A stretch of 64,000 bases of DNA from Elusimicrobia bacterium UBA5214 (GTDB taxonomy: Bacteria > Elusimicrobiota > UBA5214). The stretch is from contig DHVG01000013.1 of the NCBI GenBank assembly GCA_002412545.1, positions 129,315-193,314 of the forward strand. The letters run 5' to 3'. Positions within the stretch are counted from its first letter, which is position 1. Each line of letters begins with the position of its first letter. The position numbers and the translations under genes are program-made. Of the stretch, positions 18,762 to 64,000 are shown piece by piece. The notes under the pieces are model-generated. The model was given only the letters and a program-made list of their open reading frames with translations, was not told where the DNA came from and did not search any database.

Positions 18762-20906
18762 TTATTTAAAATGTTCTACCGTTATTGAAAAACTCGTTGA
18801 CCAAGTTTTATCTGGTTTGATGTTCAACTTCCAGTGAGGAAGAAAAATTGTCCCTTGATAGGTGCGTTCAAAACCAGATTCGGAAGAAGAAACTGTCTCC
18901 AAAGGATAATACCAAACATTTACTGGTTTAGGAAAGTCAAATCTTATTTTCATTTTTTGGTTTTCATCAATTCTTTCCCAAGAATTCTTTACTAAAAGTT
19001 CACCACCATCATCTATTTTTTCAGATAAAGCAAGATTAAATTCACAAGCAAACCAAATACCAATTACAGAGGTAGAAAAATTACCAAGACGATAATTAAC
19101 CTGAATTAAAGCCGAATTATCAACTACAATTTCTTTTTCTAAAGAAAGAGGGATTTTTTCTTCACCAGACCAAACTACACCCCGTCTGCGAAAATGAATC
19201 TTAATTTGATTTTTACCCTTTTTTACTTCCAAATTGTAAGATTGATTAACAAAATCACCTTGCTCACCGTATTGACATTTCCGAAAATCATCCCAAGAAG
19301 TATGCGGATGAAGAAAATGGTCAATTAGACAATTACGATTGTACCAATCGTAAAAAAGGTAATTTTCCAATCCTTCTTCTTTAACTTTTACCAGTTCATG
19401 AATAGTTTTTACTGTTTCACTCTCCTTTGGTCGTTCTTTCAAATATTCTTGTAAATGTTTATGATATACTTCTGACCGACGAGTAAGAACATTGACTAAA
19501 TTTACTCCCGCTGGAATAAAATCCCATTCAAAAAGTGTTCCTCCTTGAGCTAAATCAAAATATAAATTATAAGTTGAAGTTTCTACAATAAGTTCTTCTT
19601 TACCATCACAATTAAAATCAATTAAGTCAGAATGTATTTTTTCCTTTTTTATTAAGGAATTAACAATATCTTCGGCTTTAATTAAATTGCGATAAACTGC
19701 TTGTCGTAAATGGGGTAAATAAAGCCCACCAAATACACCGTGCCAATAAGCACAATTACATTGTCCTGCATAGAGCAAATCCAGCGCTTGCTGGATTTGC
19801 GGTGTAAGGTGTAAGGTATAAGGTGTAAGAGTACTTTCTTTACCTTTCACTTTACACTTTACACTTTCAACTGCTTTATTAACTTTTTCACTAACATAAA
19901 GCATTTTTTTATGAATATTATTTGCTTCTGGATATTTAACTAAAAAATTGCGCCAAAAACCACCCTTTAAAAAGGGACGTAATTTTTCTTTAACTACTCC
20001 CGGTAAAACATCTAAATTTTTTAATACTCGAGAAAAATCTTCTCCTATTCTTATATTTGGTATTGCCCATTCCGACATTTCAAAATATGCCGCTGTCGGA
20101 AGATATATCCTTCCACGTGGAGAAAACTGGTCTAAATACTCAGAAAAAGTCATTGAGATTAACCAATCAGCATTCGCTTCTAAAAGAGTAAAAAATTTAT
20201 CCAGCCATCCATCACCATACACATGTTTATGTGTCTCTGGCCAAATACCAAATTTTTCACCGTCATCAATAATAGTTAGACCAATATCTTCTTTTCTCTC
20301 ACTGTAAGAACGTAAATATTCAATTATTTCCTCTGGAATACCAAAAGGGATAAGGTAACGTAAACGTTGACTAATTGGAAAAATTCTTAAAGTTTCTCCT
20401 TCTTCTTCCGTAAGAAAATAACCGGTTAGGTCTTCGGGATGAATACCGGCAGAGAGAAAATGTGTGTCATCAACAATTGTATACTCAATTTTACTTTCGG
20501 CAAGTGATTTCGCTAAATGTGGTTCCCACACTCTTTCCGCTAACCAAACACCACTTGCAGTTATCCCAAATTCTTCCTTCAAGAATTTAGTTTGTTTAGC
20601 AATTTGTCCAAATTTATCTCGGTCAGGTATTACCGGAAGAATTGGCTCGTAATAACCACCGGTAAGTAGCTCAAGCCGTCTATCTTTAAGCAATTTTTTT
20701 ACCCGGTCAAGAAATTCGGGATGGTGTTCTTTTAGCCATTCCCAAAGTATACCACTACAATGAAAGTTAAGTTTAATCAACGGATGTCTGAGTAAAACTT
20801 CAATAAATGGTGCATATGCTTTTTGGTATGCTTTTTCAAAAATCTCCGGGAAATTACCTATTGGCTGATGATTATGAATTCCAAAAAGAAAATATATTTT
20901 TTTCAT
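18762..20906 (-). CDS. glycoside hydrolase family 57 protein (alpha-amylase / 4-alpha-glucanotransferase-like)
   Basis: GH57 hallmark GIHNHQPIGNF near N-terminus; 714 aa. Confidence 0.8.
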   Translation of the reverse strand: MKKIYFLFGIHNHQPIGNFPEIFEKAYQKAYAPFIEVLLRHPLIKLNFHCSGILWEWLKEHHPEFLDRVKKLLKDRRLELLTGGYYEPILPVIPDRDKFGQIAKQTKFLKEEFGITASGVWLAERVWEPHLAKSLAESKIEYTIVDDTHFLSAGIHPEDLTGYFLTEEEGETLRIFPISQRLRYLIPFGIPEEIIEYLRSYSERKEDIGLTIIDDGEKFGIWPETHKHVYGDGWLDKFFTLLEANADWLISMTFSEYLDQFSPRGRIYLPTAAYFEMSEWAIPNIRIGEDFSRVLKNLDVLPGVVKEKLRPFLKGGFWRNFLVKYPEANNIHKKMLYVSEKVNKAVESVKCKVKGKESTLTPYTLHLTPQIQQALDLLYAGQCNCAYWHGVFGGLYLPHLRQAVYRNLIKAEDIVNSLIKKEKIHSDLIDFNCDGKEELIVETSTYNLYFDLAQGGTLFEWDFIPAGVNLVNVLTRRSEVYHKHLQEYLKERPKESETVKTIHELVKVKEEGLENYLFYDWYNRNCLIDHFLHPHTSWDDFRKCQYGEQGDFVNQSYNLEVKKGKNQIKIHFRRRGVVWSGEEKIPLSLEKEIVVDNSALIQVNYRLGNFSTSVIGIWFACEFNLALSEKIDDGGELLVKNSWERIDENQKMKIRFDFPKPVNVWYYPLETVSSSESGFERTYQGTIFLPHWKLNIKPDKTWSTSFSITVEHFK
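19801..19871. repeat. inverted pair of heptamer arrays inside the GH57 CDS
   Basis: GTGTAAG x4 (19802..19829, one variant GTATAAG), 15-nt spacer, then TTTCAC/TTTACAC/TTTACAC/TTTCAAC (19845..19871) in inverted orientation. In-frame; encodes ...VKCKVKGKESTLTPYTLHLTP... Confidence 0.85.
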
Positions 20907-22573
20907 TCCTTCTCCTTTGAAGAAAATAGATAATAGTCAATCTCTGGGAATAGATTGTCAATATCTTCAATCTCTTGCAGATAATTTATTTCCTTTTGAC
21001 CAAATTCACTTTTTTCTAATATACCAATTAAATTACGGAATCTTTGATAATGCAAAAGGAAGCGTTGAGTTGCATATTCTTTCGCTTGTCCAGTAGTAAC
21101 TAAGAAAGGCCAGTCTGAGGATTGAAGAAGCAAAAGTTCACGGGCAGCTTGGTTAAGTAAACCACGGGACACACCTTTTGAATGAGTGTATTTTTTCACC
21201 GCTGATTCCATTAACTTTTCCGCTTCATAGATATATGGCCAGAACCACTCGGTTTCTGAATTATACCAGACATAATGTTTCCCACCATTACCCCAAGATG
21301 ATTCCGGTAAATCAATAACTTCTACTGGATTAGAACAAGTGAAATACTCACTTAAAGTCATCGCTTTAACATTGGGATTCAAATATATTTTTTTAACCAC
21401 TTCTTTTAACCAGAAAATTCCTTCAAACCACCAATGTCCAAAAAGTTCTGTATCATACGGTGAAACAACAATTCCGTATTGCCCATTTCTTTTTCTAAAA
21501 TTAAGAAGGAGGTCTTCTACTAAATGGTTGAAATGGTCAGCGTTCTCGTTAATTTTTAACACTGTATTTTCTGGGACATAGATTTGTTTAAGACCTAAAT
21601 CAATTTTTCGGTCAGTAATTCGCCAATACTGCAATCCAGAATCAGAATCTTTTTTATGAAATTCGCGATAGTTACCATCACCCGGATATCCCCATTCACC
21701 AGACCAAACTTGTAATCCAGTTTCTTTATTCCGGGAAAAAACTGCACAACCACTCTTCAAAAAATAAGGAAGAAAACTCGTCCCTCGACTTTTTCTTTCA
21801 CACTCAATTTTTGGTGCTTTTACTTCACCATACGGACCTATTCTTTTCTCTGCTGAATATGTCTCCATCCCTTCTAAAGCATGTGTATCACAGATAAAAT
21901 ATTCTACTCCTTGTTCAACAAGAAATTCATCCAAAGCTGGTTTATAATACTTTTTCCCTGCCTCTTCAAAATAGTATTCCGGCCGATAACCACATTCTGG
22001 TAACCAAAAACCACGTGGTCTTTTACCGAAATACTTACGATAAGTTTCTATTCCTATCTTAACCTGCGCATAAATTGAAGAATCACATTTTAATAACGGC
22101 AAATAACCATGAGTTGCTGTGCTACATAGAACCTCAATACAGTTCTCATTCTGCAGTTTACGGAAAGCACTAAGCAGATCGCGTTGATATCTTTCATAGT
22201 AACTCTTTTTAACTTTAGAAAAAATCGTTCTATAAAAAATTGCCAAACGTTCATAAGCGTAATCTTTACGAGAAGAAAACTTTCGCGCATCTCTATCTGC
22301 ACGTTCAATTTCTTTATCCATAAAATGTTCAAAACGACTCAGCAAATACTGGTCATTCAGTTGTTCCATAAGTACGGGAGTAATACTGATAGCGAACTTT
22401 GCTTTAATTCCCTCTTCAAGTAAATCATAAATAATATCTAAGAGAGGAATATAAGTTTCCATTAATCCTTCATAGAGCCATTCTTCACCAAAAGGCCATT
22501 CACCTGCCTTCCGGACAAAAGGAATATGACTATGCAACACCAAAGCAAATGCACCTACTGATTCGTTATTCAT
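20903..22573 (-). CDS. GH57-family 1,4-alpha-glucan branching enzyme-like protein
   Basis: GH57 branching-enzyme style N-terminus ALVLHSHIPFV. Track ORF extends to 22636; start preferred at internal ATG 22573..22571 (MNNESVGAF..., AGGAG-like RBS ~9 nt upstream), which removes the 70-nt overlap with the upstream gene. Confidence 0.75.
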   Translation of the reverse strand: MNNESVGAFALVLHSHIPFVRKAGEWPFGEEWLYEGLMETYIPLLDIIYDLLEEGIKAKFAISITPVLMEQLNDQYLLSRFEHFMDKEIERADRDARKFSSRKDYAYERLAIFYRTIFSKVKKSYYERYQRDLLSAFRKLQNENCIEVLCSTATHGYLPLLKCDSSIYAQVKIGIETYRKYFGKRPRGFWLPECGYRPEYYFEEAGKKYYKPALDEFLVEQGVEYFICDTHALEGMETYSAEKRIGPYGEVKAPKIECERKSRGTSFLPYFLKSGCAVFSRNKETGLQVWSGEWGYPGDGNYREFHKKDSDSGLQYWRITDRKIDLGLKQIYVPENTVLKINENADHFNHLVEDLLLNFRKRNGQYGIVVSPYDTELFGHWWFEGIFWLKEVVKKIYLNPNVKAMTLSEYFTCSNPVEVIDLPESSWGNGGKHYVWYNSETEWFWPYIYEAEKLMESAVKKYTHSKGVSRGLLNQAARELLLLQSSDWPFLVTTGQAKEYATQRFLLHYQRFRNLIGILEKSEFGQKEINYLQEIEDIDNLFPEIDYYLFSSKEKE

Positions 22574-23000
22574 TGCTGGGAACTCCTTTTTTAAGGAAGA
22601 AATCTTTAGCGTTGAGAATGTTTTTCCTTCCATCATTAATCACCTGTTCGATTAATTCTTCTAAAGATAAATTTACCCTTTTGCTTAAAACAGAAATAAG
22701 TAGATACAAGTTAAAACCGCTAACCAATCCACATTTAATATTCTTTTTTTCTATTTCTTTGACCACTGAAAGTGCAAGATTACATGGTGTTCCACCACAC
22801 ATGTCCGTCAAAATAAGCACCCCTTCCGGACAATTTAACTCATAGATTTTTTCAATAATTTGTTGTTTAAGTATCTCCGGGTCTTGGTCAGAAAAGAAAG
22901 AAAAGGAATAAGTCTTCTCCTGAGGACCAAGAATTTCTATTGCCGATTCCAACATTTTTTCACCAAAATTACCACGGGTGAGTATAATTACAGTTGTCAT
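22566..23000 (-). CDS. PTS EIIA-Man-family domain protein with His-to-Arg substitution at the expected phospho-acceptor position
   Basis: MTTVIILTRGNFGEKMLESAIEILG and LTDMCGGTPCN match the EIIA-Man fold pattern (IVIGTHG...; LVDTWGGSP), but TRG replaces THG. Confidence 0.55.
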   Translation of the reverse strand: MTTVIILTRGNFGEKMLESAIEILGPQEKTYSFSFFSDQDPEILKQQIIEKIYELNCPEGVLILTDMCGGTPCNLALSVVKEIEKKNIKCGLVSGFNLYLLISVLSKRVNLSLEELIEQVINDGRKNILNAKDFFLKKGVPSNE

Positions 23001-23015
23001 CTAATTAGACACTAT

Positions 23016-23867
23016 CTATTTATCTATATCTCGGTGCAAAAGTTTGAGAACAAATTTTTTCTTTTCTAAAAATTTTTTTAAAGCATTAGCCACTACTACC
23101 GAACGATGTTTACCTCCGGTGCAACCTATCCCAATCGTCAGATAAGATTTACCTTCCTTAATATACCAAGGAATAAGAAACTCAATTAAGGAAAAAAATT
23201 TTTTTAAAAAACTTTTTCCCACGGGGTTATCCAAAACATATCTTTGAATTTTTTCCTCATTACCATCAAGATTGCGTAATAAATTTTCATATTGTGGGTT
23301 AGGTAAAAATCGCACATCAAAAATTAAATCTACATCTGGTGGTAATCCATACTTGTAACCAAAAGATATAATTGACAGATTAAGAATTCCTTTTTCCATT
23401 GGTCTAAGAAATTTAGTAACTACTTCTTTTAACTCACCGGGAGTTAAATTACTTGTATCAATAATTTTATCAGCCCTTGCTTTAATTTCGGTTAATCTTT
23501 TCCTTTCTTCACGAATACCCTCAATAATGCTTTTACCCAGAGGATGTCTCCTGCGTGTCTCGGAATATCGACGAACCAAAATCCGCGTGTTCGCTTCAAG
23601 AAAAATAATTTTATAATTAAACCCTTGCCGTTTTAATTCATTCAAAAAATCAAAAAATGTATCCAAAAATTCACCTTCTCGAATGTCAATGCCTAATGCT
23701 ACTTTGCTTAATTTGCCTTCCGATTGATTTACAATTTCACCAAATTTTGGAATTAAAGTAGTAGGGAGATTATCAACACAAAAGAATCCCATATCTTCAA
23801 AAGATTTAAGTGCTTGACTTTTCCCGGCACCGGAAATACCGGTAATAATAAAAAAATTTGTGCTCAT
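23016..23867 (-). CDS. rapZ: RNase adapter protein RapZ (P-loop NTPase, UPF0042)
   Basis: Walker A GISGAGKS at N-terminus; 283 aa; next to hprK/ptsN. Confidence 0.85.
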   Translation of the reverse strand: MSTNFFIITGISGAGKSQALKSFEDMGFFCVDNLPTTLIPKFGEIVNQSEGKLSKVALGIDIREGEFLDTFFDFLNELKRQGFNYKIIFLEANTRILVRRYSETRRRHPLGKSIIEGIREERKRLTEIKARADKIIDTSNLTPGELKEVVTKFLRPMEKGILNLSIISFGYKYGLPPDVDLIFDVRFLPNPQYENLLRNLDGNEEKIQRYVLDNPVGKSFLKKFFSLIEFLIPWYIKEGKSYLTIGIGCTGGKHRSVVVANALKKFLEKKKFVLKLLHRDIDK

Positions 23868-34247: not shown

Positions 34248-35134
34248 TATCCTCTTTTCCAGCGATTATGTACCCAAAACCAATAATGAGGGTATTTCTC
34301 AATCCAACCTTCTATAATTCTACTAAAAATAACTGTATTAAGCAAAGTATTTTCACGAATATTATTAACCATTTTTATTTTTAAAGGTTCCTCTACATAT
34401 ATTTCTATTATCCCGTCTTCTTTACGAACACTATAAATTGGAATAACCGCTGTTCCCGTTCTTCTTGCCAGCAGGGCAACTATTGGTGAAGTGGCCGCTG
34501 GACGATTAAGAAAATTAACATAAATATCACCCTCGGTTATCCGCTGGTCAAGTAAAACATAAAGTAAACGATTCGTTCTTAACCAGTTTAAAGCTTGTCC
34601 AATACTATTTTTAGCTGAGATAATTTTCGTCCCAAATGATTCACGAATAAGATTAACGAAACGGTCAACCAAAGGATTCTCTAAAGGACGAGCGATAGCT
34701 AAGATAGGATAACCTTTTAAAGAAAGGGCAGCATGCACAATTTCCCAATTACAAAAATGTGCCGAAAAAAGAATACCGCCTTTACCAGTGGCTAAACTTT
34801 CTTTCAAATATTCTTCACCCTGTATTTTTATATAATGCAATAAATTACCATGAGCCAGTTGTTGCATTTTAATAAATTCAGCTGCCGTTATTCCAATATT
34901 ATCCCATACTTTTTTTGCAATTTGTATTCTTTCCTGTTCCTTTTTTTCTGGAAATGCGTATTTAAGATTATCCGTAACTATTTTTCTTCTTCCGGGGAGA
35001 AAATGTCGTACCAACCATCCCAAAAGGAAACCGCCTCGCTGTGCCCAACGCCAAGATAAAACAAAAAAAATATTTTTCCCCAGCCAAGTAAGAAAATATT
35101 CTAACCACAAACTTGCTTTATTTTTTCTTCCCAA
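34247..35134 (-). CDS. lipid A biosynthesis late acyltransferase (LpxL/LpxM, HtrB/MsbB family)
   Basis: HFCNWE catalytic H-x4-E box; 295 aa. The 34-nt overlap with lpxK suggests the real start may be slightly internal. Confidence 0.75.
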   Translation of the reverse strand: MGRKNKASLWLEYFLTWLGKNIFFVLSWRWAQRGGFLLGWLVRHFLPGRRKIVTDNLKYAFPEKKEQERIQIAKKVWDNIGITAAEFIKMQQLAHGNLLHYIKIQGEEYLKESLATGKGGILFSAHFCNWEIVHAALSLKGYPILAIARPLENPLVDRFVNLIRESFGTKIISAKNSIGQALNWLRTNRLLYVLLDQRITEGDIYVNFLNRPAATSPIVALLARRTGTAVIPIYSVRKEDGIIEIYVEEPLKIKMVNNIRENTLLNTVIFSRIIEGWIEKYPHYWFWVHNRWKRG

Positions 35135-36159
35135 ATATTTTTACCTCGGATAATTTTTAATTCTATTTCCAGAATATAAACCCGTGCAAAAAGACTCTCA
35201 AATTCCGGAGAAATAAATTTTTTTAATTTCATTTCGTCTTTTTCTGTAGTTACTATTAACTCTTGTCTTTTAGATAAAAACAACAAATCTTTTTCCTGAT
35301 ACCAATGGTGGTCAGGAAAATTGTACCGATAAACAACTTCTGCTCCAAGTTTTTCTACCGTTTTTTCGAAAGCATATGGATTAGCAAGTGAAGAAAAGAT
35401 TACGACCCTTTCACCCTGCAAAAAATTTGAATCTACTACTAAAGAATTATCACTTAATAAATGCAAACTTAAAGGTTGATGAATACTTTCAACAATTGGC
35501 ACTTGTGGACAAATCTTTCTTAAATAGATATACCATCTTTCTAATTCTTCTAAATTAACTAAATTAACATTGGTTAAAAGAATTAAATGTGCCCGTTTCA
35601 ATGCCGATGCTGACTCACGCCGAGTGCCCAAAGGAAAAGATGGCTCATCTTCTAAAGAGGTCAAACTATCCAAACAGACAATATCTAAATCTCTTTTTAA
35701 AGACCAGTGTTGGAATCCATCGTCAAGAATTACTAATTCCGAATTAAATTTTTCTTTTGCTAAGAGTCCAGTCTTATATCTATCTTTACCAACAATTACC
35801 GGTACACCTTCCAATTTTTTTGTCAAAAGATAAGGTTCATCGCCGGATTCTTCAAGAGTAACTAAAATTTTTTTTCCATCGGAAACAATTACTACCCCTG
35901 ATACCTGATACTTGATACTTGATACTTGTCTTCTATAACCTCTACTTAATACGGTAATTTTCTTACCTTTATCTCTCAACTCTTTCGCGAGAACAATTAC
36001 AGCAGGTGTTTTACCTGCTCCTCCAAGTGTAATATTTCCAATACTAATCACTTTTATTTCTAATTTTTTACTTACCGTAAACAATCTCTTGATTTTTACT
36101 CCTAAAGAATAAAAAAATGAAAGAATATATAAAATAATTTTTAAAAAAGTGGTTCCCAT
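35101..36159 (-). CDS. lpxK: tetraacyldisaccharide 4'-kinase
   Basis: P-loop GNITLGGAGKTP and VLSRGY motif. Track start 36219 is 59 nt inside the upstream GT2 gene; start preferred at ATG 36159..36157 (MGTTFLKII...), 1 nt after the GT2 stop. Confidence 0.85.
   Translation of the reverse strand: MGTTFLKIILYILSFFYSLGVKIKRLFTVSKKLEIKVISIGNITLGGAGKTPAVIVLAKELRDKGKKITVLSRGYRRQVSSIKYQVSGVVIVSDGKKILVTLEESGDEPYLLTKKLEGVPVIVGKDRYKTGLLAKEKFNSELVILDDGFQHWSLKRDLDIVCLDSLTSLEDEPSFPLGTRRESASALKRAHLILLTNVNLVNLEELERWYIYLRKICPQVPIVESIHQPLSLHLLSDNSLVVDSNFLQGERVVIFSSLANPYAFEKTVEKLGAEVVYRYNFPDHHWYQEKDLLFLSKRQELIVTTEKDEMKLKKFISPEFESLFARVYILEIELKIIRGKNIWEEKIKQVCG
35899..35926. repeat. heptamer tandem array TGATAC(C/T) x4 inside lpxK
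   Basis: tgatacc tgatact tgatact tgatact; in frame, encodes ...RQVSSIKYQVSG... in the region after the SRGY motif. Confidence 0.85.
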
Positions 36160-36160
36160 T

Positions 36161-36925
36161 TTACTTTTTTCGTTTCTCCCAGAGTTTGAAATAGATAAAT
36201 ATCTCCGTGAGCAAATCATGAAGGCAAGCTAACAGACCCGGATAACCATCAAGAAAACCCAATTTTAAAAAATAACGACGGAAAAACCGTGTTCCGGGAC
36301 GCCAAAATAAATATCGCCAGGCAACGAATAAATTTGGTTTTACCCCTTTATTGCGGAGATAGCCAACTTGAAAATCAGTGTAGAAAACTAATTTTTTCAA
36401 TAACTCATTAATCGTTGAGTAGGGATAATGTTCAAGATAACCTTTTAGTGTAGCAATTTTGCCGTCAATTTGAATCCGTTCGTGGACATGTTCACAAAGA
36501 AATTTAGCTTTCCCTTTTTTAAATAGCCGCAGTTGCCGGTCAGGATACTGCCCCCCCCAACGTAGCCATTTACCAAGATAATGATTTTTCCGGGGGGTTA
36601 AGTACCCATTGATACTGGATGCCGGATGCTGGATACAGGACAAAATTTCTTCTTTTAATTCTTTACTTACTCTTTCATCAGGGTCAAGATATAAAATCCA
36701 ATCTCCCTTTGTTTGTCCGATGCCAAAAGATTTGTTCAGATTAAGATTAGGTAAATTAGGTCGAGAAAATATTTTATCAGTATACTTCCTTGCTACCTCA
36801 ACCGTATTATCATTACTTTCACAATCAACCACAATAATTTCATCTGCCCAAGAAATACTTTCCAAACATTTATCCAAGTGTTCTGCTTCGTTATGAGCAA
36901 TGATTGATACTGATAGTTTTTTCAT
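36161..36925 (-). CDS. glycosyltransferase family 2 (LPS core-type)
   Basis: GT2 N-terminus SVSIIAHNEAEHL...VVDCESND and DPDE (DxD-like) motif; 254 aa. Confidence 0.8.
   Translation of the reverse strand: MKKLSVSIIAHNEAEHLDKCLESISWADEIIVVDCESNDNTVEVARKYTDKIFSRPNLPNLNLNKSFGIGQTKGDWILYLDPDERVSKELKEEILSCIQHPASSINGYLTPRKNHYLGKWLRWGGQYPDRQLRLFKKGKAKFLCEHVHERIQIDGKIATLKGYLEHYPYSTINELLKKLVFYTDFQVGYLRNKGVKPNLFVAWRYLFWRPGTRFFRRYFLKLGFLDGYPGLLACLHDLLTEIFIYFKLWEKRKK
36610..36637. repeat. heptamer tandem array (TGATACT GGATGCC GGATGCT GGATACA) inside the GT2 gene
   Basis: Period-7 array sharing the TGATAC unit with the lpxK array ~700 bp away; in frame (..SCIQHPASSINGY..). Confidence 0.8.
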
Positions 36926-40129: not shown

Positions 40130-40148
40130 CGGAATAATGCTCAGTCAG

Positions 40149-48245: not shown

Positions 48246-49553
48246 TCATTGTAATCGTTGTTCACAATCGTTGTAATCAAGCAGTTTCTTAATTAATTCA
48301 ATATTTTTTTCTACTGCACTTTCTTCATTTCTTACTGCTTGTAAAGCGTTAATCCCAATTTTTTCTCGGAGAGCAGGAGAACCAAGTAAATTCAAAATTT
48401 GTAGTTTCAGTTCTTCACTATTTTTAACCTGTATTGCGGCTGAAGCAGAAAGCAATCTCTCAACTATTTCCTGGAAACTTTCCACATAAGGTCCAAAGAT
48501 TACTGGTTTGCCCAATGCGGCGGGTTCAAAGATATTATGTCCTCCTTGAGGAACTAAACTACCACCAATAAAAACAATAGTAGCTAAGGCATAAGCATTC
48601 ATTAGTTCACCGTAAGTATCCCATAAAATACAGTTTATAGTTGATAGTTCATAGTTAATAGTTAAACTGCTTTTACGGAGGAAAGAAATATTTCTTTGTT
48701 TAAGCAAGTTTTCAATTTCGGGAATCCGTTCTAAATGGCGGAGAGCGAGAATAAGTTTCAAATTCGGATATTTCTTTAAAACTTCTAAATAAACTTCAAG
48801 GATAATTTCTTCTTCACCTTCTCTTGTGCTTCCACAAACCCAGACCACCTCCTCAGGTTTAAAACCCAACCTCTTGAAATTGGTGACTGGGTGAATGGGT
48901 GACTGGGTGACTGCGTCATATTTCATATTCCCGGTTATTTTCACCTTCTCTCTCGGTGCACCTAAGGCAATAATCCTTTCTCCATCAGTATTCTCACGCA
49001 TAGCAAAAAAGTCAATGTATGACAAAACTTCACAAATAAAAGGATAAAAGATTTTATACCGTTGATAACTTTTATTTGAGATACGTCCATTAACTAAAAC
49101 AATTTTTGCTCCAAATATTTTTGTTTGCTGGATAAAATTAGGCCAAATTTCACTTTCAATCAGAATCAATAAAGCCGGTTTTATAAAAGACAATATCTTC
49201 CTTATCGCCCATTTAAAATCTAAAGGTAAATAAATTACCAAGTCAGTTAAATTTTCTTTTTTCGCTAATTCCCTACCCGTCGGAGTAACCGTAGAAAGAA
49301 GAATCATTTTTTCTGGAAAAATTTTTCGCAAACCGATAATTAAATTTGTTGCGGTTCTAACTTCACCTACTGAAGCAGCATGTATCCACAACCAATCTTT
49401 TGACTGATTAATTTTTTTCTTTATCTCTGAAGGAAAAAATCCCAAACGTTGGCTAAAATCAGAAAAGATTTGTCCTTTGTACTCAAAAAAATAAAAAAAG
49501 AAAATAAAAGGGAAACTGAGATAAAGCAGTAGTTTGTAAAACAAGTAATACAT
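48246..49553 (-). CDS. waaA: 3-deoxy-D-manno-octulosonic acid (KDO) transferase
   Basis: GT30 N-terminal signature WIHAASVGEV; 435 aa; adjacent DUF374 gene as is common for waaA. Confidence 0.85.
   Translation of the reverse strand: MYYLFYKLLLYLSFPFIFFFYFFEYKGQIFSDFSQRLGFFPSEIKKKINQSKDWLWIHAASVGEVRTATNLIIGLRKIFPEKMILLSTVTPTGRELAKKENLTDLVIYLPLDFKWAIRKILSFIKPALLILIESEIWPNFIQQTKIFGAKIVLVNGRISNKSYQRYKIFYPFICEVLSYIDFFAMRENTDGERIIALGAPREKVKITGNMKYDAVTQSPIHPVTNFKRLGFKPEEVVWVCGSTREGEEEIILEVYLEVLKKYPNLKLILALRHLERIPEIENLLKQRNISFLRKSSLTINYELSTINCILWDTYGELMNAYALATIVFIGGSLVPQGGHNIFEPAALGKPVIFGPYVESFQEIVERLLSASAAIQVKNSEELKLQILNLLGSPALREKIGINALQAVRNEESAVEKNIELIKKLLDYNDCEQRLQ
48637..48664. repeat. heptamer tandem array ATAGTT(G/C/A) x4 inside waaA
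   Basis: atagttg atagttc atagtta atagtta; in frame (..SLTINYELSTINCIL..). Confidence 0.85.
48882..48913. repeat. octamer tandem array GGTGA(C/A)TG x4 inside waaA
   Basis: ggtgactg ggtgaatg ggtgactg ggtgactg; in frame (..YDAVTQSPIHPVTNFKR..). Confidence 0.85.
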
Positions 49554-49555
49554 TC

Positions 49556-53464: not shown

Positions 53465-54697
<1,233 letters not shown>

Positions 54698-54729
54698 TTA
54701 ACTATCCACTATAAACTATCAACCATCAA

Positions 54730-55806
54730 CTAAATTATAAGCATCGCATCGCCGTAACTGTAGAAACGATATTTTTCTTTCTTCGCTTCCTCATAAAGTT
54801 GTAATATTTTTTCTCGTCCAGCAAAAGCAGAAACTAAAATTAAATTCGTTGATTTCGGTAAATGAAAATTGGTAATCAGCGTATCCACAAGTTGAAATTG
54901 ATAACCGGGGTAAATATAAGCATCAGTATATCCTTCACCCGGGTTAAGAATCCCATTTTTAACCTGCAATTCCAACACTCTTACCACTGAAGTACCACAA
55001 GCAATAATCTTTTTCTTCTTTTTTTTAGCCGAATTGATTTCTTTTGTGGTATCCGTAGGAAGAAAAAAGTATTCTTTCTCCAAATTATGTTCACGGATAT
55101 CCGCACTTTTTACCGGTTGAAAAGTTGCTGGACCAATATGCAAAACAAGATAAACAATTTTCACTCCCCGGGCAGATAACTTTTCTAAAAGTTCTTTCGT
55201 AAAATGTAAACCGGCAGTCGGTGCCGCTACCGCTCCTTCTTCTTTAGCATATACGGTCTGGTATCTCTCCCTATCCAACATCCTCTCCGTTCTCCGTTCT
55301 CCCTGCCTCGCCGGCAGGCAGGCGTTTTCCGTTTCTTGCGCATTTCTCTTTATGTAGGGTGGTAAAGGCATTTCACCGATTTCTTTCCAATAAGCACGTG
55401 GTGTTGAACTAAACTCTAAAATTGAATAGTTTTTTTCTTTCCCTTTGAGTACTGCTTTCAAACTATGAGAAAAAAAAATTTCTTTGTTCACTGCAACCTG
55501 AGAATTAACCAACCCTTTCCATAATTTAGGACTGATTTCTTCTAAAAGTAAAACTTCCACTTTACCACCGGTATCCTTTTTACCTTGTAATCTTGCCGGA
55601 ATAACCTTGGTCCGGTTAAGCATTAAACAATCTCCCGGAGAAAAAAAATTAACTATTTCCGAAAAAATTCTATGCTCAATTCTATTTTCTTTCCGGTGAT
55701 AAACCAAAAGCCGTGATTTATCTCTTTCGGCTGAAGGATACTGGGCAATCATTTCTTTCGGCAAAAAATAATCATAACTCTCTAATCTAAAATCTATTTT
55801 CCCCAT
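54730..55806 (-). CDS. queA: S-adenosylmethionine:tRNA ribosyltransferase-isomerase
   Basis: PLPPYI box, ERYQTVYA, AAPTAGLHFT signatures; 358 aa. Confidence 0.95.
   Translation of the reverse strand: MGKIDFRLESYDYFLPKEMIAQYPSAERDKSRLLVYHRKENRIEHRIFSEIVNFFSPGDCLMLNRTKVIPARLQGKKDTGGKVEVLLLEEISPKLWKGLVNSQVAVNKEIFFSHSLKAVLKGKEKNYSILEFSSTPRAYWKEIGEMPLPPYIKRNAQETENACLPARQGERRTERMLDRERYQTVYAKEEGAVAAPTAGLHFTKELLEKLSARGVKIVYLVLHIGPATFQPVKSADIREHNLEKEYFFLPTDTTKEINSAKKKKKKIIACGTSVVRVLELQVKNGILNPGEGYTDAYIYPGYQFQLVDTLITNFHLPKSTNLILVSAFAGREKILQLYEEAKKEKYRFYSYGDAMLII
55284..55322. repeat. heptamer array TCTCCGT x3 plus GC hairpin inside queA
   Basis: tctccgt tctccgt tctccct (55284..55304) then hairpin cctgcc-tcgcc-ggcagg (55302..55318); encodes the extra segment ..ETENACLPARQGERRTERM.. 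between PPYI and ERYQTVY. Confidence 0.8.
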
Positions 55807-57635: not shown

Positions 57636-57731
57636 GATTCAAACAGATAAAATCTCCGATTCAAACGAGATAACAACCAAAATTTAGTCAGGTCTTCCGT
57701 CTGTTCGAATCCGTTTGAATCTGTATGAATC
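57636..57731. repeat. iteron-like array: two direct CGATTCAAAC copies (22-bp period) and three tandem inverted GTWYGAATC copies (10-bp period)
   Basis: cgattcaaac at 57635 and 57657; gttcgaatcc / gtttgaatct / gtatgaatcg at 57703..57731; followed by hairpin gtcgcc-tcttc-ggcgac (57772..57788). Lies between queH stop and DUF2905 start. Confidence 0.8.
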
Positions 57732-57817
57732 GTCTTTTGGATTATCTGTCTGCATCTCGCCTTTTTTATCTGTCGCCTCTTCGGCGACCTGCCGACGAGG
57801 CATGGCGGCAATCTGCG

Positions 57818-58396: not shown

Positions 58397-58405
58397 CAGT
58401 ATATT

Positions 58406-59073: not shown

Positions 59074-59114
59074 AAATGTAATTTTTTTCTTTTGGCTTTC
59101 TTTTTGATTTTCTA

Positions 59115-59145
59115 AACTTCTTCTCCTACCCGCAATGAGCAGATA
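59115..59145. promoter_or_regulatory. conserved ~31-bp motif, copy 1, upstream of the two-gene module
   Basis: cttcttctcctacccgcaatgagcagataac; 28/31 identical to the copy at 60424..60454; minus-strand core GTTATCTGCTCATTGCGG lies ~45 nt upstream of the ATG at 59073. Confidence 0.6.
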
Positions 59146-59333
59146 ACATGTTCAGGGAAAAAATAAAACTGCCCCCTTTTTCGTCAAATGCTTAAGTCCC
59201 CATTCTTAGTTTTGCTTATAAATCCCTGCGGTTAGATTTATTTTAATAAATCTGCAGGGATGCAAAACTATGGGGGTCAAGGTTTTACACCTATTTCTAT
59301 TCCTATTTCACCCATTTATTTGAGCCCCGTAAA

Positions 59334-60404
59334 CTAAGTACCATTTGTCAATAATTTCTCCGGTAGTTTAATTCTTTCTAATCGTTGTTGGATAAGTTTT
59401 TTATCCGGCAATTTAGTTTGATAAACTGAAATTTTTATCGGTTTGTGTGTCTTACTTAAGGTCAAACGGACAATACTGTCTCTCTTAGAGCGACATAGAA
59501 TTAAACCGACCGATGGACTTTCCTCTGGTAATTTTATTTGTTCGTCAAGAGCAGCAAGATAAAACTGCATCTTACCCACATATTCCGTTCTAAATTCGCC
59601 TATTTTAAGTTCAACCGGGATAAGACATTTCAGTTCCCGATGAAAAAAGAGCAGGTCAATTCTAAATTCTTCACCATCTATCACCAGAGGATATTCTTCT
59701 CCAACAAAAGATAAGTTTTTACCAAATTCCAGAAAGAAATCTCTGAGATTGTCAAGAATTGCCTTGCGTAGTTCTTTTTCCGAGAAAGTTTTTGTTAAGT
59801 CTAAGAATTCTAAAACATATTCATCTTTTAAATGACGATGAATATCATCAAGCGGTATAGCAAGTTTCCCCTGAGTGGAACGAAGGGTCTCCTTTTCTAT
59901 CTCCATCAGTTTATCTGGTTTTTTAGAGAGAGCAAATCTTTCAAAATAAGCAGAATCAATCTGACGCTGTAATTCCCTCTTACTCCATCGTTCTTTTAAG
60001 CACATTTTGATATAAAACTCTTTTTCTTCAATGGTTCTTGTATGGTCTAAGATAATCACATTGTTTGTCCAGCTAATTTCTCCAGCCAGTGGCTGGAGAA
60101 TTGTTTTGTCTCTGTAAGTTAAATAAAATTTCTTCATATACCATAAATTCTGGACTGAAAATCCGCTCATTTCCGGATACTTCATCCTCAAATCCTGTGA
60201 TAGTTTCTCAACCACCCCATCACCCCATTCGCTCTTCTCTTGAAGACTTACAATACGCTCACCAATAAACCAGTAAAGGTCAATCAGCAGTTTATTTACA
60301 GTAGTGATTGCCTTATGTTTATTTTCTTCAACCTTTTTTATGATAGCTGAAAGTGATTCTCCGTAATCTTGAGTTTGTTTTTTTACAATATTAATTTTTC
60401 CCAT
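59334..60404 (-). CDS. YhcG-family (DUF1016) PD-(D/E)xK nuclease-domain protein
   Basis: N-terminal DUF1016 pattern (LIDLYWFIGERIV...WGDGVVEKLSQDL...GFSVQNLWYMKKFY...WSKRELQRQI) and C-terminal PD-(D/E)xK core (IDLLFFHRELKCLIPVELKIGEF); 356 aa. Confidence 0.8.
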   Translation of the reverse strand: MGKINIVKKQTQDYGESLSAIIKKVEENKHKAITTVNKLLIDLYWFIGERIVSLQEKSEWGDGVVEKLSQDLRMKYPEMSGFSVQNLWYMKKFYLTYRDKTILQPLAGEISWTNNVIILDHTRTIEEKEFYIKMCLKERWSKRELQRQIDSAYFERFALSKKPDKLMEIEKETLRSTQGKLAIPLDDIHRHLKDEYVLEFLDLTKTFSEKELRKAILDNLRDFFLEFGKNLSFVGEEYPLVIDGEEFRIDLLFFHRELKCLIPVELKIGEFRTEYVGKMQFYLAALDEQIKLPEESPSVGLILCRSKRDSIVRLTLSKTHKPIKISVYQTKLPDKKLIQQRLERIKLPEKLLTNGT

Positions 60405-60423
60405 AGGTACATTTTAAATTCTA

Positions 60424-60454
60424 TTTCTTCCCCTATCCGCAATGAGCAGATAAC
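60424..60454. promoter_or_regulatory. conserved ~31-bp motif, copy 2, immediately upstream of the YhcG-family gene
   Basis: tttcttcccctatccgcaatgagcagataac; ends ~20 nt from the YhcG ATG; TAGAAT-like hexamer follows the core on the minus strand. Confidence 0.6.
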
Positions 60455-60537
60455 GATCTCTGGATAAAAGAAGTTGCTGGAGGCAATTTGGGAAAATCTT
60501 TGATTTCCCTTTTGTCCGCTGTTAGGCGATGTGAAAA

Positions 60538-61110
60538 TTATAGTGTTGGCAAAATAACAAGAGCAACAAAAAGAAACAATGAAATTCCATAGATAAAAAG
60601 AACATATTTAGGCATAAGTAAAAATAATCCTCGTTCTTTTCTTTGTTCTGGCGAAAGTTTCAGGCTATATATACAGAAAAAAATAACAGGAATTATTCCA
60701 AATATCGCAATTGCAAAAATTATCTCCAAGACAAATAATATCCATATAGACCATAGCGGACGTTTAACTACCATTTCCTTTATGCCGAATAATGCTGAAT
60801 AGATTCCATAACCTATTGTGCACCAAAATAACCATTTACCAACAAAGTAATAATCTCTCTTTTTGATTGCTTGCTTTAACTTCTTCTCTCCAAATATATC
60901 TCTATCGTTTTTTTGCAATTCTTTTATTTGCATTTTATAGTTTTTAGCCTGCTGCAAAATCTCATTTGAAGGTTGACTTAACCTTCTTTCATCTAAAATT
61001 GATTTAGCAATTTCAATCGCTTCTTCAATATAATCTGAACTGTCAAAATATACCATAACTAAGAGTTCATTATCGCTAAGTTTTGAATACTGATCTTTTA
61101 GTTCATTCAT
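60538..61110 (-). CDS. hypothetical membrane protein (soluble N-terminal domain plus 3-4 TM helices)
   Basis: 190 aa; Lys/Glu-rich N-terminal ~90 aa, then hydrophobic helices; no known motif. Confidence 0.5.
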   Translation of the reverse strand: MNELKDQYSKLSDNELLVMVYFDSSDYIEEAIEIAKSILDERRLSQPSNEILQQAKNYKMQIKELQKNDRDIFGEKKLKQAIKKRDYYFVGKWLFWCTIGYGIYSALFGIKEMVVKRPLWSIWILFVLEIIFAIAIFGIIPVIFFCIYSLKLSPEQRKERGLFLLMPKYVLFIYGISLFLFVALVILPTL

Positions 61111-61183
61111 TATTTGACCTCTTTATATTTTTATGTAGCTTAACTTTTTTGTTTCCAAGCAGGTTTGGATACTTTTCCGGTTT

Positions 61184-62209
61184 TTAGAATAGTTCTTTGT
61201 TTTTTGGTGGAAGTAGCCCTAAATGACGATAGGCGTTTTCGGTAGCGATACGTCCACGGGCAGTGCGAGAAAGGAAACCGACTTGAATCAGATAAGGTTC
61301 ATAGACATCGGTGAGCGTATCCACTTCTTCGGAAACGGCGACTGCCAAAGTTTCTATCCCGACCGGACCACCGGAAAATTTTTCCATTATCGTCAATAAG
61401 ATTTTTCTATCCATTGAATCCAACCCGGCAGTATCTACTTCTAACGAACTTAACGAATCTTCGGCAATCTTACGGGTAATTATTCCTTGTCCTTTGACTT
61501 CGGCAAAATCACGGATTCTCCGTAAAAGACGGTTGGCTACCCGCGGGGTTGCTCGGGAACGGGAAGCAATAATTTCTGCACCGTCATCTTCAATTTTTAT
61601 CTCTAATAGTTTCGCTGAACGGAGAACAATCTTTTTCAATTCATCAAAGGTATAAAAGTTTAAATGTCCGATAATCCCGAATCTTTCTCTTAAGGGACTG
61701 GTGAGCAGACCGGCACGGGTAGTCGCTCCGACTATGGTAAAACGCGGTAAAGGGAGACGCATATTCCGTGCACTTGCTCCTTCACCAATAATGATGTCTA
61801 ATTTGAACTCTTCCATTGCCGGATATAATGCTTCTTCAACTAAACGATTCAGCCGATGAATTTCGTCAATAAAGAAGACATCACCGTCAGTTAAATTGGA
61901 AAGAATTGCCGCAAGGTCACCGACCCGTTCTAAAGCCGGTCCGGAGGTGGGACGAATATTTACATTTAATTCGTGGGCAATAATGTAGGCAAGAGTGGTT
62001 TTGCCTAATCCGGGAGGACTGTAAAATAAACAATGGTCTAAAGGTTCTTTTCTTTGTTTTGCCGCCTGGATAAAGATACGCAGGTTATCCTTTAATTTAT
62101 CCTGCCCGACAAATTCGTCTAATGTCTTCGGACGCAAGGTAATATCAATTTTTTCTTCTTCCGGAGTAATCTCGGTAGTAAGTATACCCCGCACCTTTTC
62201 ATTCTGCAT
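61184..62209 (-). CDS. ruvB: Holliday junction branch-migration ATPase RuvB
   Basis: AAA+ Walker [12 protein letters not shown], Walker B DEIHRL, sensor regions; 341 aa. Confidence 0.95.
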
Positions 62210-62334
62210 TTTGTTTATTTTCCTTCTTTAGTAGTCTTGACGCTAAGCAAACCCCACACTAATAAAGATGCGGGGTAAGCGGTCTTTCAAAGGTGTTCAC
62301 CTTTAAGGGTTAAGTGATTCCACAAAAATGGCTA

Positions 62335-62444
62335 GGCAATTTGTTGAGGGGTTCCTCTTTGAACGACATCAGAGTTTTTGACGACCTTCGATTTTGGTCA
62401 AAAAATCATAAAGTGAAAAGAGGGTTCCCGAGACAAAAATTGCC
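62335..62444. other. structured element in the unusual 327-bp ruvA-ruvB spacer
   Basis: Closing helix ggcaattt (62335..62342) with aaattgcc (62437..62444); internal hairpin tttttgac...gtcaaaaa (62375..62404); direct repeat gagggGTTCC; separate hairpins aaaggt-gttc-accttt (~62290..62305) and gccgagc-aa-gctcggc (62484..62499). No ORF of 60 aa or more. Confidence 0.45.
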
Positions 62445-62536
62445 TACTCAAAACTCTGCTTTAACAAATTCTATTATTTTTTAGCCGAGCAAGCTCGGCA
62501 ACTACAATTGCGATACAACCTCTTAGATAAAGTTAC

Positions 62537-63145
62537 TTAGCGGTTAAATTTTTTTAATGCCTGAGTAACTAAATCTTCAGCCGATAATTTACTTTTCTGC
62601 TGGCTACTTGCGGCACTAAGCACTTCTTCTACTGCTTCCCGTGCCTGGAATTCCCGGTAACCGAGTGCAACTAAACCAGCAATCGCATCCAGTATTTCTT
62701 TTTCTTCGGTGGCTATTTCTCCCTTTTCTTCAGAAATTATCCATTCTTTAATTTTTTCTTTTAATTCCAGAATAATCTTTTCGGCAGTTTTCTTACCAAT
62801 ACCAGGAATAGTGGTGAGATAAGAGATTTCTTTACTGGAGACGGTTTTTTTAAATCTTACCGGCGGGCAATGGGAGACAACCGAAAGGGCAATCTTCGGA
62901 CCGACATCCGGAACATCTAAAAGATAACCGAAGAGTTGTCTTTCTTCCCGGGTAAAAAAACCGTAAATCTGTTGAATATTTTCCCGCACATGAAAGTAAG
63001 TATAAAGTTTCAATGGTTGATTTATTTTCGGTAATTTTTCGTAAGTAGTCAGCGGGACAAAAATCTGGTAACCAATACCGTTCACGGCTAAAGTAACTTC
63101 TTCTCTACTTTTATCGGCTAAAGTGCCTTCTAAAAAATTATACAT
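62537..63145 (-). CDS. ruvA: Holliday junction DNA helicase RuvA
   Basis: RuvA domain I (GIGYQIFVP), helix-hairpin-helix domain II (LLDVPDVGPKIALSVVS, IPGIGKKTAEKI), C-terminal RuvB-binding domain; 202 aa. Confidence 0.9.
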   Translation of the reverse strand: MYNFLEGTLADKSREEVTLAVNGIGYQIFVPLTTYEKLPKINQPLKLYTYFHVRENIQQIYGFFTREERQLFGYLLDVPDVGPKIALSVVSHCPPVRFKKTVSSKEISYLTTIPGIGKKTAEKIILELKEKIKEWIISEEKGEIATEEKEILDAIAGLVALGYREFQAREAVEEVLSAASSQQKSKLSAEDLVTQALKKFNR

Positions 63146-63152
63146 TTGTTAA

Positions 63153-63677
63153 TCACAAATCTAATTTATTCGCTTGAACTTGTTTATTATATTTTGCGTT
63201 ATAAAGGTGACAGAGGGCTACGGCTAAAGCATCACTGACATCATCCGGTCCCTGAATCTGATTACCGCTAACCGGCAAATTAAGACAGAGTTTTACCATT
63301 TTTAGCACTTGCGATTTTACTGCTCTCCCCTGCCCGGTAAGCGCTTGTTTAACTTGTAAAGGGGTATATTCAAATACCGGAATCCCTGCCTCGGCAGCGG
63401 CAAGCATGATAATTCCTTGACTCTGGCCAACTACAATTGCGGTTTTTACATTCTGAGCAAAAAAAAGTTTCTCCATCACTAAACAGGAAGGTTTATCCTG
63501 CTGAATAATTTTTTTTAATTCAGAATAAATCTTTTTTAATCTCTCCGCTGTAGAACTCTTTGTTTCTGTTTCAATACAACCGTAATTTTGAACTCTTAGC
63601 TCCTTGCTCTTTGCTATTTGCTCTATTGTTCCCCACCCACATCGGGCAATACCCGGGTCTATTCCAAGAATTGTCAT
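63153..63677 (-). CDS. ruvC: crossover junction endodeoxyribonuclease RuvC
   Basis: RNase H-like N-terminus ILGIDPGIARCGWG with catalytic Asp. Track start is TTG at 63686; ATG at 63677..63675 (MTILGIDPG) preferred. Confidence 0.9.
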   Translation of the reverse strand: MTILGIDPGIARCGWGTIEQIAKSKELRVQNYGCIETETKSSTAERLKKIYSELKKIIQQDKPSCLVMEKLFFAQNVKTAIVVGQSQGIIMLAAAEAGIPVFEYTPLQVKQALTGQGRAVKSQVLKMVKLCLNLPVSGNQIQGPDDVSDALAVALCHLYNAKYNKQVQANKLDL

Positions 63678-63685
63678 TTTGTTCA

Positions 63686-63775
63686 ACTTATAACTTATGA
63701 CCTATAACTTATAACTATTAGTTGTTGTATGTTATCGGTTATTGGTCATCGGTTATCAGTCATCAGTTATTAGTC
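63686..63775. repeat. two adjacent heptamer arrays filling the ruvC-yebC spacer
   Basis: AACTTAT-type x5 (63686..63720) then ATCGGTT-type x6 (63734..63775: atcggtt attggtc atcggtt atcagtc atcagtt attagtc), ending at the yebC stop codon; TGATAC periodicity continues into the yebC 3' end (63779..63792). Confidence 0.85.
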
Positions 63776-64000
63776 CTACGATACTGATACTACCTTCTCC
63801 ATCACTGCCTTCGGAATATCAAAATTAGCATAAACATTCTTTACATCTTCGTGTTCTTCCAAAGCATTCATTAAGGCAAGCATCGTTTCCGCTTTTTTCT
63901 CATCCAATTTTATGTAGGTCTGCGGGAAAAAAGTTATTTCGGCGCTGCTTAAAGGAATTTTCTTCTCTTCCAGTATCTTTTTTACTTTTTCATATTCTTC
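63776..64000 (-). CDS. yebC: YebC/PmpR-family transcriptional regulator, C-terminal 74 codons (5' end beyond window)
   Basis: Manual minus-strand translation from the window edge: ...MLALMNALEEHEDVKNVYANFDIPKAVMEKVVSVS then TAG at 63778..63776; matches the conserved YebC C-terminal box; yebC-ruvC-ruvA-ruvB is a classic arrangement. Absent from ORF track (edge-truncated). Confidence 0.8.
   Translation of the reverse strand, partial: EEYEKVKKILEEKKIPLSSAEITFFPQTYIKLDEKKAETMLALMNALEEHEDVKNVYANFDIPKAVMEKVVSVS

Follow-up and report, generated by a model that had tools for sequence, protein, structure and literature searches.

Heptanucleotide tandem arrays with site-specific units in genes and spacers of an uncultured Elusimicrobiota lineage

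How can tandem arrays of a seven-nucleotide unit, whose length is not divisible by three, lie in frame inside conserved enzymes, and what process generates them if the unit differs from site to site? The question is raised by a stretch of 64,000 nucleotides from Elusimicrobia bacterium UBA5214 (assembly GCA_002412545.1, contig DHVG01000013.1, positions 129,315 to 193,314 of the forward strand; hereafter the window), in which a first-pass annotation had noticed at least ten micro-arrays of three to six tandem copies within genes such as lpxK, waaA, tgt and queA and in the spacer between ruvC and yebC. We found that these arrays are a clade property of this Elusimicrobiota lineage and its close relatives, that orthologous sites in different lineages carry different units, and that the arrays within genes lie in insertions or variable loops. 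We consider it probable, though well short of certain, that they are hepta- and occasionally octanucleotide simple sequence repeats (SSRs) arising from a clade-specific bias of slippage or expansion and filtered by selection.

Arrays were called with Tandem Repeats Finder on the 64-kb window. The program returned rows at all coordinates of the first-pass annotation except 36610-36637 in a family 2 glycosyltransferase (GT2) gene, where a count by hand gave 15 period-7 matches out of 21, which is under its threshold, and it added two arrays that had been overlooked, at 54700-54732 in the queA-tgt spacer and at 63593-63624 inside ruvC. With cut-offs of at least 3 copies and a score of at least 40 together with a complexity filter, nine period-7 arrays (nine rows) and one period-8 array (two rows) were detected in the window, against 0.0 rows in 40 dinucleotide-preserving shuffles, so the enrichment over a shuffled model that had been proposed as a check is present, and among periods 1-24 it is limited to periods 7 and 8. 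Exact period-7 match runs of at least 12 occurred four times in the window and not once in 30 shuffles; for periods 4-6 and 8-15 the window held no exact run of that length. The arrays are thus longer than composition predicts, as is characteristic of prokaryotic SSRs with units of 5-11 nt, and they share with these SSRs the use of many different units instead of one element. Compared in pairs, the units are no more similar than random ones (P = 0.55), and dispersed 11-mer copies or seeds of the arrays were not above chance in the window, which agrees with the earlier suggestion of a recurrent process. A single mobile element, or a motif common to all units, was rejected on the same two grounds.

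The first-pass annotation had also allowed for an assembly artefact. Short-read assemblers can miscount tandem units, and the contigs of one metagenome-assembled genome (MAG) end within arrays. However, four assemblies, which derive from at least two runs, contain identical arrays, and the four-copy form in tgt has the backing of four assemblies; the comparison with independent assemblies proposed earlier gave 100% identity to the window over the arrays covered, both for two Logan assemblies of separate runs and for a JGI contig. In addition, every host open reading frame (ORF) is kept open across its array, and arrays are also found at the orthologous sites of several further species that come from other samples. 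That the arrays themselves are an artefact of assembly or sequencing is refuted, and we give this practically no chance. The Logan contig ends at 43247 and 53385 do not coincide with an array.

The arrays are restricted to a clade. The Tgt protein of the window is 73-82% identical to those of a handful of close relatives, and the next tier, named Elusimicrobia MAGs, stands at about 60%. In the close relatives, 7 arrays were found in 61.8 kb of syntenic loci (L003, L016, L007 and L009), a density like that of the window. The outgroups yielded 0 arrays in 75.8 kb, made up of three loci around Tgt genes about 60% identical (L017, syntenic; L018, partly syntenic; and L019) and a Poribacteria locus; the Elusimicrobia-like part of this sequence is about 55 kb. 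In the syntenic outgroup L017, ruvB was called as three fragments (3499-5670) and ruvC and ruvA were left uncalled, which could be due to a noisy long-read assembly or to real decay.

Within the clade, the same sites carry arrays with different units. At the lpxK site, a comparison of DNA from five lineages showed CAAGTAT-type units in the window and L022, five perfect AAGATTC units in L016 and AAAGTCC in L021, while in L020 the array is absent and the gene is exactly 21 nt shorter. The first waaA site has NAACTAT in the window and L004, TCACCAG in L003 and L005, and CAACCAT in L006 and L007, and the second has the 8-mer CAGTCACC in the window and L003 against the 7-mer AATTACC in L006 and L007. 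In the tgt loop, ACAACTAT occurs as a single copy in the window and L003 and as 4.6 copies in L006 and L009, and the perfect TTCAGCG array of tgt is specific to the species of the window. Individual arrays are homogeneous internally and differ between lineages, which indicates concerted evolution by unit turnover. Their length is kept between species in the lpxK and GH57 comparisons, and they can be ordered as stages of a life cycle, namely perfect and young (tgt), homogenised and old (lpxK), and decaying (the GH57 array of L016, which is still recognisable as the array of the window). Presence in one lineage and absence in another at otherwise orthologous sites was seen for the arrays at LpxK and for hairpin inserts in L007 versus L006 and in L003 versus the window; for the arrays, this is a prediction of slippage too.

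The reading frame is preserved by a simple rule. The first-pass annotation reasoned that flanking sequence must compensate for a 28-nt array, which turned out to be wrong, because the LpxK alleles differ by exactly 21 nt, that is, by three units, and no compensation is needed. The array-free LpxK relative is 75% identical to that of the window and shorter by exactly 21 nt (7 residues). In the LpxK alignment, P0127, P0129 and P0130 are short by exactly seven residues relative to the window, P0128, P0131 and P0132, and the array is an exact 7-residue insertion relative to 4EHX, the structure sequence of A. aeolicus LpxK. It follows that an array of about four copies amounts to about one seed unit plus three added units, if the difference is taken as a gain rather than a loss. 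Three heptamers make 21 nt or seven codons, and three octamers make eight codons. Successive heptamers take the reading of the unit through all three frames, so that a unit containing a stop codon in one of them cannot be reiterated inside a gene. Twelve of the 15 consensus units found in genes are free of stops in all three frames, and the remaining 3 are substituted exactly at the would-be stops. For example, the variable first base of NAACTAT in the first waaA array evades an in-frame TAA, and the period of the GH57 partner array (19838-19867) is broken exactly at a would-be in-frame GTG-TAA. All three of the intergenic units, by contrast, contain stop codons.

Alignment of host proteins with their orthologues, another check proposed at the outset, placed the arrays in lineage-specific insertions or variable loops. 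Residues encoded by arrays never fall on invariant columns in the Tgt, QueA, WaaA and LpxK alignments, and against solved structures they appear as insertions or gaps of 7 residues in LpxK, 26 in GH57, about 21 in QueA, and 9 and 5 in WaaA. The 26-residue insertion relative to chain 1K1W contains the first GH57 array, the site of the first waaA array is a variable loop of the WaaA alignment, and at the second the window has 9 extra residues relative to 2XCI, in gaps of 2 and 7. Compared with L003 and L009, the queA insertion is longer by 14 residues (42 nt); in the gene, it continues upstream of the part listed in Table 1. The RuvC array occupies a loop at which E. coli RuvC has a two-residue gap, and the L022 orthologue of the GT2 enzyme has an unrelated peptide at the position of the weak GT2 array. 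The description of the hosts as essential genes was overstated: it holds for lpxK and waaA, which are usually essential, whereas tgt, queA, ruvC and the GH57 glucanotransferase gene are dispensable in model bacteria.

In prokaryotic genomes with many 5-11-nt repeats, heptanucleotides are reported to be commoner than any other class, and the cause proposed is slippage related to the footprint of the polymerase (Mrazek, Guo and Shah 2007, as cited in PMC4679880 and PMC4692102). We propose that in this lineage local seeds of 7-8 nt would be reiterated by strand slippage or by short-range template switching during replication or repair, with slippage or polymerase behaviour as the likely molecular cause, and that repeated contraction and re-expansion would keep each array internally uniform. 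Selection would then let an array in a gene survive only in an unconstrained surface loop or linker, only if the net length changes in steps of three units (21 or 24 nt), and only if the unit is free of stops in all three frames; the array itself would need no function of its own. No such filter applies in spacers, so that arrays there fill the whole gap and carry stop codons. As far as these two articles recount them, the SSRs of prokaryotes resemble the present arrays in that heptanucleotides are over-represented in certain lineages only and with many units per genome, and differ in that units whose length is not a multiple of three lie mainly between genes, whereas here most arrays lie in frame in genes (PMC4679880, PMC4692102). 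The steps of three units and the concerted evolution at orthologous sites also set the window arrays apart from the described 5-11-nt SSRs. The GGGAATC/GGGGA(T/C)T repeats of Xanthomonas and Nostoc are likewise heptamers, and at the same loci they vary in length and sequence from one related species to another; the preference for about four units and the occurrence of some inverted pairs, as described in Xanthomonas, recur here; however, they rely on one G-rich, quadruplex-forming unit and show under-representation within coding sequence, while the present arrays have many AT-rich units without G-tracts and are mostly in genes (PMC4692102).

A number of observations weigh against this explanation or stand outside it. 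The sequence considered amounts to some 64 kb of this genome and some 80 kb from relatives. How a four-copy array could be born in an essential gene without passing through frameshifted intermediates of one or two units is left unaccounted for, and so is the choice of period 7. Several arrays replaced loop sequence while leaving the net length almost or wholly unchanged (waaA versus L018, tgt versus L003, and queA in L009), which simple stepwise slippage does not predict. The GT2 array and the queA array of L009 (L009 5569-5596) are identical at 26 of 28 positions, with the same order of unit variants and in opposite orientation relative to their genes; the latter array is a length-neutral change that abuts ancestral GGATGCTGGATAG, and its 3' half is ancestral coding sequence. 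Similarly, the queA-tgt spacer array and the tgt-loop array of L006 are identical at 30 of 33 positions in inverted orientation, about 560 nt apart, and both similarities suggest copying between arrays. The waaA array of L004 equals that of the window over 39 nt, yet the flanks within the divergent patch differ at 5 positions. The GC-rich hairpin inserts within arrays and the 8-9-nt arrays that abut start codons are not explained by slippage, and the sole direct copy-number variant (three versus four units in tgt) may be a product of the assembler.

The L003 and L004 strains, which are 99.1% identical, differ in two short divergent patches (16240-16290 and 20273-20406), one of which swaps the waaA array, TCACCAG in L003 versus TAACTAT in L004, the latter being identical to the window. 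These patches suggest short-patch recombination with diverged donors. A window-like origin of the waaA patch of L004 was considered and rejected, because the second divergent patch of L004 is not window-like; the cause would rather be general recombination with diverged donors.

In-frame GC-rich palindromes of 21-30 nt (e.g., TCCCGCCAAAGGCGGGA and CTCCTGCCCGCCAAGGCTTGGCAGGCGGGAG) occur at four sites, three of them inside heptamer arrays, and each was seen in one lineage but is missing from a sister or near-identical one. The ruvC array of L003 is interrupted by the 21-nt in-frame palindrome TCCCGCCAAAGGCGGGA, the AATTACC array in waaA of L007 by a palindrome that adds 27 nt, and L006 has a different palindrome at the queA site of the window. 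The hairpin insertion of tgt is common only to the window and its closest relative, P0002, and is absent in all other aligned Tgt proteins. No further copies of this insert or of the GC-rich palindromes were found in the window and the loci of the relatives beyond the sites listed in Table 1, and short palindromes show no notable general excess across the window. Judged from their flanks, a number of GC-rich hairpins in relatives resemble ordinary terminators. The Tgt protein P0004 (L003 10001-11311) is extended at its C-terminus by about 45 residues, across the GC-rich hairpin CCGCCTTAGGCGG, probably because the stop codon was lost or because the gene call runs into a terminator.

Could the arrays have been copied instead of grown in place? 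A short patch of one array might be transferred to a matching seed at another locus, through ectopic conversion or a template switch between inverted arrays, or the arrays might be very small mobile elements of the Nostoc type, GC-rich hairpins included. The 26/28 pair with its shared order of variants and the 30/33 inverted pair with its ancestral single seed speak for copying, the lpxK and GT2 arrays have the TGATACT unit in common at a distance of 711 nt, and the in-frame palindromes within the arrays of L003 ruvC, L007 waaA and window queA would be accommodated. One-step insertion of several units would also solve the problem of array birth. The inverted partner that the first-pass annotation had described in GH57 is indeed present, though imperfect; the pair forms an interrupted hairpin of -11.5 kcal/mol on folding (z = -3.4), and the clade members P0249 and P0250 lack 10-15 residues at the site of the partner. 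The P6b element of the Nostoc tRNA-Leu intron has the same anatomy, with two inverted heptamer blocks forming a hairpin and variation both in copy number and in non-repeat inserts, as in the GH57 pair and the mini-insertions described here, but it concerns an intron RNA, whereas here protein-coding loops under frame constraint are affected (PMC3488679). However, most units are unrelated, about 5 unit matches with at most one mismatch are expected by chance among the approximately 25 arrays by our estimate, the 30/33 pair has only one unit variant in common, and the absence of dispersed copies or seeds above chance has been noted. Miniature inverted-repeat transposable elements, repetitive extragenic palindromic sequences and small dispersed repeats are recognised by dispersed copies, and we found no extra copy of an array or hairpin in the window, only the two cross-species pairs of arrays. 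The arrays are not framed by terminal inverted repeats or target-site duplications, nor were defined ends seen, and no transposase is present among the annotated ORFs of the window. Small dispersed repeats of Nostoc were reportedly described by Elhai et al. in 2008; in comparison with these, the hairpin inserts are single copies in the examined sequence and at most candidates for mobility. Overall, we regard templated copying as possible but unlikely. Doubtful to a greater degree is an active, sequence-independent process that would write blocks of about 30 nt composed of 7-8-nt repeats, along with small GC-rich hairpins, at seeds or breaks in a single step, whether through template switching, ectopic short-patch conversion or some enzyme not yet known, which would overwrite loops and spacers and leave blocks shared between loci and even species. 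If it were true, it would be a bacterial counterpart, within coding sequence, of the phenomenon of heptamer repeats and small dispersed repeats in Nostoc. In L003, a variable insert between ruvB and queH contains a gene (4390-5340) that encodes Y1 transposase and DnaA C-terminal domains; a counterpart was not found among the annotated ORFs of the window.

Two further explanations assign the arrays a role. In the spacers, they might act as nucleic-acid elements on translation initiation or transcript stability, as was proposed for the TAACTGA repeats of marine Beggiatoaceae, which are also found in Cyanobacteria and some Bacteroidetes (PMC4679880). Those repeats are intergenic heptamers of 2-6 copies that stand before start codons without a Shine-Dalgarno sequence, overlap the upstream stop codon, have a unit with stops in all frames, and in a few cases lie in frame in reverse orientation at the protein periphery, all of which has parallels here (PMC4679880). 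The arrays that reach the ruvC and tgt start codons without a Shine-Dalgarno sequence, the recurrence of AGTGAAAT/AAATAGTG-type 8-mers upstream of different genes in relatives, the conservation of the queA-tgt spacer array at 32 of 33 positions between the window and L003, and one literal TAACTGA in 63731-63775 fit such a role. However, the TAACTGA family has a single unit, whereas the units here are site-specific and only those of 63731-63775 are TAACTGA-like (PMC4679880). The mean minimum distance of our units to TAACTGA is 2.4 versus 2.9 for random units, a weak closeness (uncorrected P about 0.01, with units that are not independent). The placement before a start codon, usually without a Shine-Dalgarno sequence, is true of the queA-tgt and yebC-ruvC spacers and untrue of the 8-10 arrays inside genes, which this role leaves unexplained; the spacer units differ from each other, relatives have shorter arrays or none in the corresponding spacers, and a search of the window gave no Rfam match and no tRNA gene at or near the arrays. 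We therefore consider a functional element improbable. A literal TAACTGA also occurs at the stop codon in the 19-nt spacer between two glycosyltransferase genes (40130-40148), which opens with TAACTGACTGA; it is probably due to chance.

Alternatively, slippage by one unit might switch genes off and on, especially those for lipopolysaccharide. Heptanucleotide repeats are said, in a survey of Haemophilus, to be among the phase-variable tracts of pathogens, and contingency loci resemble the present arrays in having an in-ORF unit not divisible by three, in which a slip of one unit shifts the frame. Four of the 10 arrays within genes belong to lipopolysaccharide genes (lpxK, GT2 and two in waaA), but the window itself is a lipopolysaccharide gene cluster, and ruvC, tgt, queA and GH57 bear arrays as well. 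In a sister assembly, GCA_002400355.1 (L015), the single difference from the window over 11,007 aligned bases is one TTCAGCG unit fewer, leaving 3 copies, and the missing unit frameshifts tgt into ORFs of 200 and 185 residues. This is the only variant seen, and it may be real slippage or a small-k de Bruijn collapse on a perfect repeat of 30 nt. Assembly contigs also break at arrays: a contig of another MAG (L013; GCA_003530275.1 DPTL01000202.1) starts inside the tgt array at window position 54106 and ends inside the first waaA array at 48637, and the partial LpxK protein P0126 begins inside the lpxK array. The arrays thus fragment assemblies and truncate gene calls, and such breaks fit heterogeneity of the arrays and looping of the assembler equally. 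Unlike contingency tracts, the arrays are short (about 4 units), mostly imperfect and located in housekeeping genes, and their length is kept between species; moreover, switching lpxK or waaA off would normally kill the cell. Phase variation is in our opinion highly improbable, although a hazard of slippage to the host genes is plausible.

Compared with these alternatives, slippage and expansion filtered by selection in the clade still appears to us the most reasonable basis for reading the features collected in Table 1. The annotated real genes of the window all lie on the minus strand and about 90% of it is coding. It is an envelope and lipopolysaccharide region with kdsA/B/C/D-like genes, lptC/A/B, lpxK, a lipid A acyltransferase gene and waaA, and it further encodes GT2, GT4 and GT9 transferases, sulfatase-family genes, GH57 enzymes, phosphotransferase-system (PTS) regulators, secDF-yajC, tgt, queA, queH, ruvABC and yebC. 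About 8 of 12 arrays lie in frame inside conserved enzymes; the spacers make up about 10% of the window but hold about one third of the arrays, so that they are favoured relative to their length. One Laminin_G_3/Por_Secre_tail protein (7946-8952) is encoded as two overlapping ORFs (8569-8952 and 7946-8587), which looks like a frameshift or pseudogene; a repeat at the junction is not evident.

Table 1. Positions of the tandem arrays and hairpin insertions (window coordinates unless a relative's locus is named; "+" denotes the plus strand and "coding" the strand of the gene)
Feature	Location	Strand	Unit, copies and product
Heptamer array, GH57 4-alpha-glucanotransferase gene (18762-20906)	19801..19829	-	+ GGTGTAA x4.1; coding CTTACAC/CCTTACA x4.1; encodes LTPYTLHLTP
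Inverted partner in GH57, imperfect	19838..19867	-	+ CTTTACA x4.6; coding AAAGTGT x4.6; encodes ESVKCKVKGKE
Heptamer array, lpxK (35101-36219)	35897..35928	-	+ TGATACT x4.3 (35899-35928); coding CAAGTAT x4.3 and a degenerate fifth unit; encodes QVSSIKYQVS
Weak heptamer array, GT2 glycosyltransferase gene (36161-36925)	36610..36637	-	+ TGATACT GGATGCC GGATGCT GGATACA
Heptamer array 1, waaA (48246-49553)	48632..48665	-	+ AGTTAAT-type x4.9; coding NAACTAT x4.9; encodes LTINYELSTINC
Octamer array 2, waaA interdomain linker	48878..48913	-	+ GGTGACTG x4.0 (48882-48913); coding CAGTCACC x4; encodes AVTQSPIHPVTNF
Perfect heptamer array, tgt (53492-54670)	54085..54114	-	+ CGCTGAA x4.3; coding TTCAGCG x4.3; 11 residues in the hypervariable Tgt loop
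Hairpin insertion, tgt	54332-54352		21 nt in frame; hairpin AGTGGTT-GTAG-AACCACT; 7 residues, GCRTTAG
Array of 8-9-nt units running into the tgt start codon	54655..54699	-	+ looser CACAGATT(T); coding AAATCTGTG x4
Heptamer array filling the queA-tgt spacer	54700..54732	-	+ AACTATC x4.7; TAGTTGA x4.7 from the queA stop codon on; stops in all three frames
Loop insertion, queA (part)	55284..55322	-	+ TCTCCGT x2.7 (55284-55302); coding ACGGAGA x2.7 (55284-55304), then GC-rich palindrome CCTGCCTGCC-GGCG-AGGCAGG (55302-55322)
Degenerate heptamer array, ruvC (start near 63677-63686)	63593..63624	-	+ CTCTTTG x4.6; coding AGAGCAA x4.6; encodes IEQIAKSKELRV
Heptamer array directly upstream of the ruvC start	63685..63716	-	ATAAGTT x4.6; no Shine-Dalgarno sequence in between
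Heptamer array after the yebC stop	63731..63775	-	RACYRAT units (TAACCGA, TGACTGA, one literal TAACTGA) x5.7-6
GC-rich palindrome, queA	window 55302-55322
GC-rich palindrome, ruvC	L003 712-732
GC-rich palindrome, waaA	L007 6238-6269
GC-rich palindrome, queA	L006 ~1040-1070

The spacers vary between relatives in the same manner as the loops. The array at the tgt start is kept with changes in L003, and related AAATAGTG/AGTGAAAT arrays stand upstream of other start codons in relatives; arrays of the AAAT..GTG type with 8-9-nt units fill spacers up to the start codons of different genes, namely tgt in the window, queA in L006 and kdsA in L021. The array in the queA-tgt spacer is shorter in L006 and L009 than in the window. 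The ATAAGTT array belongs to a 52-nt stretch that is missing from L003, where the site downstream of yebC has a shorter array of the AAACGGA type. In L006 (465-572) and L021 (7504-7531, 9561-9592 and 10214-10249), whole spacers that end at the start codons of queA, kdsA and kdsC are taken up by 8-mers of the AGTGAAAT/AAATAGTG type, in as many as 13.5 copies, and by AAAAGTT 7-mers. Inside lptC of a relative, the hexamer CAATCT is repeated six times.

The cause of heptanucleotide over-production in some prokaryotes has been an open question since 2007, and this uncultured Elusimicrobiota lineage is a new host clade for the known repeat bias, in which the rules of three units and of stop-free units can be seen cleanly. 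Its array-free sister lineages with the same gene order offer a clean comparison for finding the responsible feature of replication or repair. The arrays break contigs and can yield spurious or real frameshifts in MAGs, and gene calls in this clade need to be checked with repeats in mind. The loops of LpxK, WaaA and Tgt form a natural series in which mutational bias, and not selection at the level of the protein, writes the sequence of surface loops.

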